32,000 bases of DNA from Methanobacterium sp. PtaB.Bin024. GTDB lineage: Archaea; Methanobacteriota; Methanobacteria; Methanobacteriales; Methanobacteriaceae. Below the pieces are notes generated by a model. The model was not told the origin of the DNA. It made no database searches and saw only the letters and a program-made list of their open reading frames with translations. The first letter of the stretch is position 1; every line of letters begins with the position of its first letter. Shown in pieces: positions 28,915 to 30,402 of this stretch. Where the stretch lies: contig MVPY01000043.1 in assembly GCA_002067065.1 (NCBI GenBank), forward strand, positions 102,334-134,333, written 5' to 3'. A program made the translations under genes and the position numbers.

Positions 28915-30402
28915 TTAGCTGGAGTGGGTTTTCCATTCCTGCACTACATAATCAAATATTTCTTTAGCAAATTCAGAGTACACATCTACGGTTTCAGGAT
29001 CAAAAGCCACATTGTTAAGATATTGTAGGCGTAGGGCATCACCGTCCAGGTATTCTGGCATCAGACCACAGAAGAAGAATCCCATTTTTTCGATTTCAGG
29101 ACATAGTATGGCAGTGTTGGGATTCTTTAAGGGGATATCCAGAACTATGAGTTCAACCTTTTTCTCTTTCAGATCCTGAACATGAAGCTTTAGTTCATCC
29201 ATAAAGTCTGTTCCGTACGTGTTAACCCTTAAAAAAGCACTGGCCATTTCTGGTAAAAAGTGAGAGTGAATATCAGAATGAAAAGCTAATTTCACGTTAT
29301 CAGGATCTGCTATTTTTAAAACTCGTTTTAATCCAATGTGTTTGTAAATCTTCCTGAGCGTATGCTGATGTTTATATGGTAAAAAGACTGTTTGCTCCTG
29401 GTCTGGTGCTGCGAGCACGTAAAAGAGAGCTACAGTCCGGCGGATCCCATCATCCTCAGTTTTCATCTTTTTAAAGATAGCCGTAGGTGGAGAATGAGCC
29501 AACACAAAACCAGTCTCCTTGGCCCCCATTTCCACATTTGACTTTTGAGAGGCCACATGAACTGTTACTGCTCGGCTATAAAGGCCTAAAATACCTTTAG
29601 CTGCTACTTCTTTCATCATCATTCTCTTCATTTTTGGGAAAAGTCCCCTTCCACGATAACGGGGGTCAACTGCAGCCAGGCCAGATTCTCCCACATGATC
29701 CTCAGGAGTTTCTAGGAAAACTCCCAGATGACCCACAATTTCATCCTGTTCATTTACAGCTACACAGGAAGTTACCGTTCCAGATTTTATTAAAGATGCG
29801 AATTTCTCAGGATAATAAATCTCTTCATGAGGATAAGTGTAACCATAAACACGATATATTAACCTAGCCAAGGATACTGTTTCATCTGGACGCATTAAAC
29901 GTAAATTAACCATTTCTGATTTAGGGGCCAGATCTTCTTTAGGAGATATGGGAGTATTTGGAGGAGATTCCAATTCATTAACTGATTCAAAGGGGAAATT
30001 TTTAACCAGTTCTACCACCTTCCCTTTTTTCCCCAAATATTTACTTTTAATCTCATCAGTACAAGCTCTCATTAATTTAACCCCAATATCAGAGGTTTCT
30101 TCTTCTTTTAGTCGCTGGAGGTTAAAGGGTATACCCTGATCTCGTATTGTGACTCTAAAACAAGTAGGTTCACGGTGAATTTTCACCTTATAATATCCAT
30201 GTTCCCCTGGTTCGTAGGCGTGTTCAATGACATTATGGCATGCTTCTTCAGTTGCCAGCTCTAAATCCCTCACAGCAGATTCACTCAACCCATAACCTGA
30301 AGTCACATCTCTAACCGCGCGTAAAACTATGGGGAGCAGTTTTAATTCTGCTTTTACCTTTAATGAGGCAAGTGTCTCTTTATCTGTGGTTTCAGGGGGC
30401 AT
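28915..30402 (-). CDS. fusion of an RsbW-like HATPase kinase domain with a GNAT acetyltransferase and a second GNAT-like domain
   Basis: aa ~20-135 read LELATEEACHNVIEHAYEP...VTIRDQGIPFN, an RsbW-type N-box and G1 box. The GGxG lid looks degenerate (SDIGVKLM). aa ~165-305 form a GNAT domain with the acetyl-CoA motif A VDPRYRGRGLFPKM (nt ~29644-29661). aa ~335-495 look like a second GNAT-like fold (...EIEKMGFFFCGLMP...). Confidence 0.8.
   Translation of the reverse strand: MPPETTDKETLASLKVKAELKLLPIVLRAVRDVTSGYGLSESAVRDLELATEEACHNVIEHAYEPGEHGYYKVKIHREPTCFRVTIRDQGIPFNLQRLKEEETSDIGVKLMRACTDEIKSKYLGKKGKVVELVKNFPFESVNELESPPNTPISPKEDLAPKSEMVNLRLMRPDETVSLARLIYRVYGYTYPHEEIYYPEKFASLIKSGTVTSCVAVNEQDEIVGHLGVFLETPEDHVGESGLAAVDPRYRGRGLFPKMKRMMMKEVAAKGILGLYSRAVTVHVASQKSNVEMGAKETGFVLAHSPPTAIFKKMKTEDDGIRRTVALFYVLAAPDQEQTVFLPYKHQHTLRKIYKHIGLKRVLKIADPDNVKLAFHSDIHSHFLPEMASAFLRVNTYGTDFMDELKLHVQDLKEKKVELIVLDIPLKNPNTAILCPEIEKMGFFFCGLMPEYLDGDALRLQYLNNVAFDPETVDVYSEFAKEIFDYVVQEWKTHSS

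Follow-up and report, generated by a model that had tools for sequence, protein, structure and literature searches.

Partner switches are textbook regulators of sigma factors. In their closest described forms, the RsbW/RsbV/RsbU and SpoIIAB/SpoIIAA/SpoIIE systems of Bacillus, a STAS protein with an acceptor serine is co-encoded with a serine kinase of the HATPase_c_2 type and a SpoIIE-type PP2C phosphatase. All three components were found together in a 32,000-nucleotide (nt) stretch of DNA from Methanobacterium sp. PtaB.Bin024 (contig MVPY01000043.1), referred to below as the window, in which a tight minus-strand cluster of four genes, read as an operon, encodes a fusion protein of 495 amino acids (aa), a STAS protein, a phosphatase and a 140-aa RsbW-like kinase. 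Judged at the level of the cassette, this has the components of a partner switch, with an acceptor serine in the STAS protein and a cognate kinase and PP2C encoded alongside. The first gene of the operon, and the subject of this analysis, specifies the fusion, whose N-terminal domain is a clear RsbW homologue and is followed by a GNAT and a GNAT-like domain. The locus departs from the Bacillus switches in its archaeal host and the absence of a sigma factor, in having two RsbW-like modules, one of them lid-truncated and joined to an enzyme, in a phosphatase that carries a 5TMR-LYT membrane sensor, and in an output that would be acetylation. Archaea are not known to have sigma factors; in such a host the GNAT module, as the sole component foreign to the switch, is the obvious output, and we infer this role from the fusion and from synteny. 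We place it just on the probable side that the protein is a partner-switch-gated acyltransferase, in which the unphosphorylated STAS protein would dock onto the RsbW-like part of the fusion and alter GNAT activity.

Other known systems share single traits with this arrangement. In B. subtilis, RsbT is an active kinase of the RsbW family that activates the RsbU PP2C by direct contact, under the control of the STAS proteins RsbS/RsbR. The fusion resembles a covalent version of this pair, as an RsbW-family module under putative STAS control that would regulate an enzyme, whereas RsbT acts in trans and on a PP2C, and the RsbW-like domain described here is covalently joined to a GNAT. Outputs other than sigma factors are also known for the partner switches HsbR/HsbA of Pseudomonas and SypE/SypA of Vibrio. 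Partner switches that regulate enzymes instead of sigma factors include HenR/All4160 of Anabaena (bioRxiv 10.64898/2026.04.08.717354), and CapK/CapS likewise has a non-sigma output (PMC13373217). These systems have in common with the proposed one that STAS phosphorylation controls non-sigma targets, enzymes among them; in them, however, the STAS protein contacts the effector, is joined to it or is itself a repressor, whereas here it is the anti-sigma-type domain that is fused to the enzyme. Among the non-sigma partner switches found in the literature, none involved a GNAT, none an enzyme fused to an anti-sigma-type domain and none an archaeon.

GNATs gated by N-terminal regulatory domains exist, as do tandem GNATs in which the first domain alone is active (PMC8556138). 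The fusion is similar to the type III enzymes (mycobacterial cAMP-Pat, ACT-GNAT and NADP-GNAT; PMC8556138, PMC6434083) in that a regulatory domain precedes the GNAT, and the classic substrates of these enzymes are AMP-forming acyl-CoA synthetases, whose genes neighbour many members of the present family. It differs from them in that the N-terminal module is of the protein-partner RsbW type and not a small-ligand sensor, that a second GNAT-like domain follows and that its lysine acetyltransferase activity is a prediction. With the Eis-type (type V) tandem GNATs (PMC8556138) it shares two GNAT folds of which only the N-terminal one carries an acetyl-CoA motif, but the SCP2-like third domain and Acetyltransf_17 are absent, Acetyltransf_9 stays under its gathering score, and Eis has no N-terminal RsbW-like domain. 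In concept, the fusion unites the regulatory-domain GNATs of type III with the tandem GNATs of type V. The features of the operon, as defined by open reading frames (ORFs), Pfam, Foldseek, alignments and AlphaFold2 (AF2) models with their per-residue confidence (pLDDT), are as follows.

28915-30402, minus strand: three-domain fusion gene (RsbW-like, GNAT, GNAT-like), 495 aa; from the ORF, Pfam, homologues and an AF2 model with pLDDT 86.
29995-30381, minus strand: RsbW/SpoIIAB-type HATPase_c_2 domain, aa 8-136; from Pfam, profile comparison with the PDB, and Foldseek.
30217-30249, minus strand: N-box EEACHNVIEHA, aa 52-62, including the Mg-ATP residue Asn57; from the sequence and an 83-sequence alignment.
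30124-30141, minus strand: G1 box DQGIPF, aa 88-93; from the sequence and the alignment.
30070-30123, minus strand: truncated ATP lid followed by a degenerate G2 box, aa 94-111; from alignment with SpoIIAB, RsbW and 18 small RsbWs.
29908-29994, minus strand: Pro/Glu-rich linker, aa 137-165, predicted to be disordered; from AF2 (pLDDT 41-61).
29410-29907, minus strand: catalytic-type GNAT domain, aa 166-331; from Acetyltransf_1 and Foldseek.
29641-29667, minus strand: acetyl-CoA motif A DPRYRGRGL, aa 246-254 (R-x-x-G-x-G); from the sequence and the alignment.
28918-29409, minus strand: divergent GNAT-like C-terminal domain, aa 332-495; from AF2, fold matches and conservation.
28533-28865, minus strand: STAS protein of the anti-sigma-antagonist type, 110 aa; from Pfam STAS and TIGR00377.
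28701-28703, minus strand: codon of STAS Ser55; from an alignment of 24 cassette STAS proteins.
27032-28399, minus strand: membrane phosphatase, 455 aa, with 5TMR-LYT (aa 30-193) and SpoIIE/PP2C (aa 263-453) domains; from Pfam.
26609-27031, minus strand: stand-alone canonical RsbW-type serine kinase, 140 aa; from Pfam, a PDB profile match and motif alignment.

The fusion ORF represents a real gene, because M. ferruginis encodes a homologue with 88% identity and hundreds of further homologues exist. A word-indexed search returned 612 matches, the best 120 of which were nearly all full-length (480-515 aa). Profile searching of 1.84 billion representatives at E <= 1e-30 retrieved 1,153 clusters (50% identity), the best 150 of which had nearly all the same three-domain length, and a scan of one genome per species detected the family in 291 species, so that the HATPase_c_2-GNAT architecture noted in a preliminary description of this DNA recurs widely. 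Besides Methanobacterium, many bacterial phyla are represented; the host groups include Methanobacteriaceae, Dehalococcoidales, Cloacimonadota, Ignavibacteria, Syntrophaceae, Rubrobacteraceae, Sumerlaeota and Armatimonadota. Database entries are named 'GNAT family N-acetyltransferase' or 'ATP-binding protein', and at JGI 'anti-sigma regulatory factor (Ser/Thr protein kinase)/GNAT superfamily N-acetyltransferase', which indicates that the architecture is already visible to automatic annotation; NCBIfam holds no model dedicated to the family. Literature searches combining RsbW or HATPase_c_2 with GNAT or acetyltransferase, or partner switching with GNAT, returned nothing relevant and no paper on the family; the hits of one such search were chance coincidences of words. 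The family is absent from the type I-V scheme of bacterial GNAT lysine acetyltransferases (PMC8556138), and a review of STAS proteins mentions neither acetylation nor archaea (PMC8256260). It thus appears to be unstudied, and is a large, uncharacterised, cross-domain family with a cheaply testable hypothesis.

Within a rough neighbour-joining tree, the archaeal sequences formed one clade nested among bacterial ones, and the archaeal STAS protein, phosphatase and kinase were near their Dehalococcoidales counterparts; read most simply, these sequence relationships point to a joint acquisition of the whole cassette from bacteria. Rare architectures were also seen, in which two FHA domains precede the HATPase_c_2-GNAT core or a Schlafen/AlbA_2 domain follows it (P0240, 1046 aa; P0214, 652 aa), and the FHA-fused variant again points toward phospho-signalling inputs. 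Paralogues in tandem or no more than 4 kb apart occur in Dehalococcoidia (L064 6479-9467; L004 6001-7470 and 11207-12685; L-numbers denote the species loci compared with the window), with no STAS gene nearby.

The anti-sigma-type domain that the preliminary description had assigned to the 495-aa ORF was confirmed, together with the motifs it had quoted. In Pfam, aa 17-134 match HATPase_c_2 (PF13581; E 2.3e-19, 70.1 bits versus a cut-off of 27.4), the family profile retrieved B. subtilis RsbW (6m36, E 4.7e-15) and SpoIIAB (~1e-9) from the PDB, and Foldseek on the full-length AF2 model gave a TM score of 0.88 to the RsbW chain of 6m37, with 1til also matched. The domain is 26% identical to the small RsbW of the operon (E 2e-12). 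It is not an RsbW/SpoIIAB orthologue, since the respective NCBIfam equivalog models scored far under their cut-offs (40 versus 145 bits). Residues E52, E53, N57, D88, G90 and P92 were invariant in the 83-sequence alignment; among 142 distant representatives (family members at 50% identity), N57 was present in 103, G90 in 141 and P92 in 140.

Compared with SpoIIAB, RsbW and 18 small RsbWs, the fused domain lacks nine residues of the ATP lid, such that the distance from D88 to G107 is 20 aa instead of the 29 aa found in canonical kinases. The G2 box of the window protein reads S-D-I-G (SDIGVKLM) in place of the canonical G-G-L-G or S-G-M-G. Its degeneracy, pointed out in the preliminary description, holds for this protein and its Methanobacterium relatives, the close ones having SD[IL]G, HDLG or QQIG, whereas most bacterial members have the family consensus S-G-L-G; the first G2 glycine is therefore lost in the clade of the window protein. 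Members of the Rubrobacter type have lost all G2 glycines (T-A-L-P). Measured against an RsbW kinase, the fused domain thus retains the N-box and G1 box and is deficient in the full lid and the glycine-rich G2 box. Across the 142 representatives, the G1-G2 span is bimodal, with 20 residues in 72 (including the window protein) and 29 residues in 57; the latter resemble ordinary RsbW kinases with canonical boxes. A short lid was accordingly rejected as a hallmark of the whole family, given that about 40% of the distant representatives keep the 29-residue span. G2 degeneracy likewise showed no clean correlation with the presence of a stand-alone kinase: Dehalococcoidales cassettes combine SGLG with a small RsbW, which means that G2 decay is not simply tied to a separate kinase, and the orphan paralogues of Methanobacterium have a degenerate G2 box.

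Several GNAT residues are better kept than N57 among the same representatives (R250 in 131, H282 in 132, Q286 in 139, R321 in 138 and G397 in 135). Read from these alignments, the constant core of the family would be the tandem-GNAT enzyme, to which an RsbW-derived domain is attached that seems to be progressively shedding its kinase features, furthest in the branch of the window protein and in Rubrobacter. The suggestion that the fused domain is a binding-only pseudokinase is supported for this protein, though not proven, by the lid deletion, the loss of the G2 glycine and the canonical state of the stand-alone kinase; it is qualified by the distant members with canonical-looking boxes and by a G2 decay that does not follow the presence of a separate kinase.

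For the first GNAT domain, Acetyltransf_1 (PF00583) matched aa 186-271 above its gathering score (26.3 versus 20.7 bits) and was found in 80 of the 83 members. Its motif A (R248-Y-R-G251-R-G253), with R250 and G251 invariant in the 83 sequences, is the canonical acetyl-CoA motif previously reported, and Foldseek matched the domain to GNAT structures down to about E 1e-8 (TMt 0.7-0.8). The second GNAT-like fold held at the level of the fold, and on that level only. Pfam matched aa 332-495 in none of the 83 members, and the R-x-x-G-x-G motif is absent from this region. Modelled alone, the C-terminal domain reached a pLDDT of 93, and among PDB entries its model retrieved solely GNAT structures, weakly (E 8e-4 to 2e-2, TM ~0.4), with matched cores of ~100 residues at ~3 Å. 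Many polar residues of the C-terminal domain are invariant (H345, D455, N464), and its GFFF and RLQYLNNV blocks are conserved. Acetyltransf_9 (Eis-like) reached 23.3 bits against a cut-off of 25 in the window protein and gave weak matches in 25 of the 83 members, among which Acetyltransf_17 and SCP2_2 had no match. Identity with MshD was rejected (score far under the cut-off), and phmmer matches to cytochrome c550/PsbV (E ~0.01) were attributed to chance, as they disappeared with the family profile.

The remaining three proteins of the operon are the switch components. The STAS protein matches Pfam STAS (E 1.9e-19) and TIGR00377 (78.5 bits versus a cut-off of 53.45), and the motif YISS[SA]GLR recurs throughout the 24 STAS proteins of the cassettes, in which a conserved KK (LKK) comes just after it. 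Its acceptor, Ser55 in the window protein, aligns with the phospho-acceptors SpoIIAA Ser58 and RsbV Ser56. Both domains of the phosphatase were clearly recognised by Pfam (5TMR-LYT, E 6e-49; SpoIIE/PP2C, E 5e-53), and 5TMR-LYT is a ligand-binding sensor that binds pyruvate in BtsS (PMC10653868). The 140-aa kinase (Pfam E 4e-26; PDB SpoIIAB 1.7e-5) has the N-box DEVASNIILHG, the G1 box DRGEPF, a full-length lid and the G2 box GGLG, and 18 of 18 small RsbWs were canonical in their N-box, G1 box (DxGxPF[DN]P), full-length lid and GGLG. The fusion stop is 49 nt from the STAS gene, as previously stated, if translation starts at the ATG at 28865, which is preceded by GGGAG; the distance shrinks to 25 nt with the alternative first in-frame ATG at 28889. 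The start codon of the kinase gene abuts the stop codon of the phosphatase gene, and the cluster is bounded downstream by a convergent DEAD-box helicase gene.

To survey the genomic context, the ORFs of 78 species loci and the window (n=79) were searched with iterated hidden Markov models seeded with the four window proteins. A STAS gene was located within 3 kb of the fusion in 20 of the 79 loci, and the trio of STAS, small RsbW and PP2C in 17 (15 of 53 when the count is limited to loci flanked by 2 kb or more on each side), with the cassette PP2Cs mostly carrying the same 5TMR-LYT domain. Linked loci span at least five separate clades, namely Methanobacterium, Dehalococcoidales, Ignavibacteria/Melioribacter, Cloacimonadota and unclassified bacteria. 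The gene order is fusion-STAS-PP2C-RsbW in Methanobacterium, STAS-fusion-PP2C-RsbW in Dehalococcoidales, RsbW-STAS-fusion in Melioribacteraceae and PP2C-RsbW-STAS-fusion in two unclassified bacteria, and a linkage that outlasts such rearrangement argues for functional coupling. In a Pfam census of 136 immediate neighbours, STAS ranked first (18), followed by AMP-binding (8), AcetylCoA_hyd_C (7), SpoIIE with 5TMR-LYT (7), MFS (5), amino-acid permease (4), PTS_EIIA_2 (4) and M20 peptidase (3). Of six distant members examined, two had an adjacent STAS gene; both are long-lid proteins, known from contigs of 3.5 kb (L086) and 2.8 kb (L088). Dehalococcoidales cassettes additionally contain a second, larger SpoIIE-type phosphatase (573-581 aa, without a 5TMR-LYT match) after the small RsbW (L030 11351-13072, L037 11351-13096, L046 5393-7114), followed by one or two CoA-transferase genes.

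Apart from the switch, the family is linked to genes of acyl-CoA metabolism. A gene for a 435-aa protein of the acetyl-CoA hydrolase/transferase family, nearest to butyryl-CoA:acetate CoA-transferase yet under the equivalog cut-off, was found within 6 kb of the fusion in 15 of the 79 loci, from three phyla. It is divergently oriented beside the orphan paralogues of Methanobacterium; in Rubrobacteraceae it lies immediately upstream, on the strand of the fusion, and in Dehalococcoidales it comes last in the cassette. A long-chain acyl-CoA-ligase-like gene immediately follows the fusion in one clade of Cloacimonadota. In four loci (L087 3374-8621, L043, L065 and L071) the gene is inserted, its stop and start codons overlapping with those of its neighbours, between a ~890-aa fusion of LuxC (acyl-CoA reductase) with an AMP-ligase and LuxE (acyl-protein synthetase), an arrangement that constitutes an uncharacterised acyl-activation and reduction operon. 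In these loci an MFS transporter gene lies downstream, and the GNAT holds the place of LuxD in lux operons. The CoA-transferase, ligase and LuxC/LuxE neighbours suggest that the target is to be sought in acyl-CoA metabolism. In bacteria, GNAT protein acetyltransferases classically act on AMP-forming acyl-CoA synthetases (PMC8556138), and on this basis the best guess at the target of the family is an acyl-activating enzyme acetylated on lysine.

The mechanism that we favour, drawn as a whole from sequence, predicted structure and synteny, would operate as follows. The enzyme would be an acyl-CoA-dependent N-acyltransferase with an active first GNAT and a structural or substrate-binding GNAT-like domain, gated by the N-terminal RsbW-derived domain as a binding-only 'receiver' of the partner switch. 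As input, the membrane-bound 5TMR-LYT-PP2C phosphatase, a putative small-molecule or membrane sensor, would dephosphorylate the phosphorylated STAS protein; for reset, the stand-alone RsbW kinase would phosphorylate STAS Ser55. Docking of the unphosphorylated STAS protein would most likely relieve an autoinhibitory contact, and the switch would have acetylation as its output instead of transcription. Its target is probably part of acyl-CoA metabolism and is most likely to be lysine residues of acyl-CoA-forming enzymes, in the manner of Pat/AcuA acting on Acs. Acetylation as the output of the switch had already been proposed in the preliminary description, and the architecture, the complete cassette and its recurrence in at least five clades speak for it; the proposal is weakened by loci that possess the enzyme without the switch. 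Rather doubtful is a broader form of this mechanism, a widespread phospho-to-acetyl relay with the N-domain as pseudokinase receiver, in which a partner-switch-gated protein lysine acyltransferase acts on acyl-CoA ligases, LuxE and CoA-transferases. If it held, a signal set by a 5TMR-LYT carboxylate/membrane sensor phosphatase and a dedicated kinase would, through serine phosphorylation, directly control carbon/acyl-CoA flux, in archaea without a sigma factor.

The role of partner-switch components in archaea and in bacterial cassettes without sigma factors is largely uncharted ground, and an anti-sigma-type domain fused to an enzyme names the output, which renders the question testable with four small recombinant proteins. 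If the gated acyltransferase were confirmed, it would represent a new class of regulatory-domain GNATs, gated by a protein partner instead of a small ligand, and would link serine phosphorylation with acetylation. It might provide a control point of acyl-CoA metabolism in methanogens, Dehalococcoidales, Cloacimonadota and syntrophs. The canonical lid, the truncated lid and the loss of G2 moreover form a natural series from kinase to pseudokinase.

Several observations weigh against a switch-gated acyltransferase. About 70% of the loci have no STAS gene within 3 kb. A close Methanobacterium metagenome-assembled genome (L009) keeps the fusion and is devoid of exactly the STAS, PP2C and RsbW genes (L009 7173-7348 versus window 28942-26575). 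Synteny holds on both sides, with PRPP synthase, the DUF5518 genes and the fusion at one end and the DEAD-box helicase at the other, and the absence is due either to a natural deletion of the cassette or to an artefact of assembly. In the complete genome of M. ferruginis NBRC 105197, the closest cultured relative, the PP2C orthologue consists of three consecutive ORFs of 151, 202 and 97 aa (L006 10022-11387) and could be a pseudogene disrupted by frameshift. The enzyme evidently does not depend strictly on the local switch. The N-domain may have a role independent of STAS, or its STAS protein may be encoded elsewhere. In the first case, the RsbW-like domain would serve in dimerisation, as a scaffold or in ATP/ADP sensing, while the switch genes would be co-located for co-regulation or act elsewhere. 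The members inside LuxC/LuxE or CoA-transferase operons without a STAS gene and the FHA- or Schlafen-fused variants would suit this explanation. We nevertheless regard it as unlikely, because STAS is the commonest immediate neighbour, the linkage persists across clades despite changed gene order, and no alternative output of the cassette is plausible in an archaeon. The preliminary description further proposed that the GNAT takes the place of the sigma factor in cis; with a predicted TM score (pTM) of 0.65 for the full-length protein, AF2 leaves the placement of the N-domain relative to the GNAT unfixed. A closer tie between the enzyme and the switch would result if the STAS protein or another switch component were the acetylation substrate, recruited by the RsbW-like domain, which would add a lysine-acetyl layer over serine phosphorylation. 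Substrate-recruiting domains are commonly fused to GNATs, the STAS gene is adjacent and the KK just past the phospho-site motif would offer conserved lysines, but the many STAS-less loci and the linkage to acyl-CoA enzymes would be left unexplained, and we consider this very improbable.

Most members also keep the N-box Asn, the G1 Asp and S-G-L-G, and about 40% of the distant ones the full lid, which may leave the fused domain able to bind ATP or to use it. It could then be an active serine/threonine kinase for the STAS protein or another substrate. The protein would in that case be both a kinase and an acetyltransferase, next to which the small RsbW would act as a parallel second kinase, as RsbW and RsbT do in Bacillus. 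The invariance of E52, E53, N57, D88 and G90 in the close family, the resemblance of the consensus G2 box to S-G-M-G of SpoIIAB and the full-length lid and canonical boxes of distant members fit such an activity. It appears distinctly unlikely in view of the 9-aa lid deletion throughout the subfamily, the loss of the first G2 glycine in the clade of the window protein, the canonical kinase co-encoded in every complete cassette and the stronger family-wide conservation of GNAT residues over ATP-site residues. As regards the substrate, no gene for an acyl-CoA enzyme lies within the window, and the amino-acid permease, M20 peptidase and MFS neighbours seen across the family would suit a small molecule. 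The enzyme might accordingly N-acylate an amino acid, an amine or an osmolyte such as beta-lysine, with the switch tuning metabolite synthesis, which is possible, if doubtful. Many polar residues are invariant in both GNAT halves, suggesting a defined pocket, and there is a very weak match to the beta-lysine N-acetyltransferase AblB (TIGR03827; E 0.009). At 15.5 bits against a cut-off of 205.1, however, the protein is not a member of the AblB family, and the strongest linkages outside the switch are to acyl-CoA-forming enzymes, a class typically modified by bacterial GNAT lysine acetyltransferases.

The gene content of the window is archaeal and Methanobacterium-like (pseudomurein-type Mur ligases, PAN, LonB, NikR), and ~22 kb of it are syntenic with M. 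ferruginis at a DNA identity of ~80%. Just upstream of the operon, at 30658-31402 (minus strand), lie the genes for two glycine-rich DUF5518 membrane proteins, paralogues of 129 and 106 aa, and this position is kept in Methanobacterium relatives. A PADLOC search with the four cassette proteins yielded no match to a known anti-phage defence system (0 families at E <= 1e-3). The exact 13-mer AAATATAATGTTA occurs twice on the minus strand of the window, at 28884-28896, just 5' of the STAS gene, and at 28472-28484, in the 133-nt gap before the phosphatase gene. With a chance expectation of 0.37, two matches were reached in 6 of 100 shuffles; the element could be TATA-like or regulatory and give rise to internal promoters, or could be a chance occurrence in AT-rich spacers.

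Pfam gave nothing, even at E 0.01, for two minus-strand ORFs of 422 aa (8182-9450) and 144 aa (9462-9896), which immediately follow a pseudomurein-type cluster (9906-16056) that contains two Mur-ligase-like genes, an MraY-like glycosyltransferase 4 gene and an ATP-grasp gene. At 391-3641 (minus strand), genes for an Fe-S protein, two DsrE/F-like proteins and one DsrH-like protein, an SBF-family transporter and an ArsR-type regulator form a cluster that looks like a sulfur-relay set beside a transporter in a methanogen.

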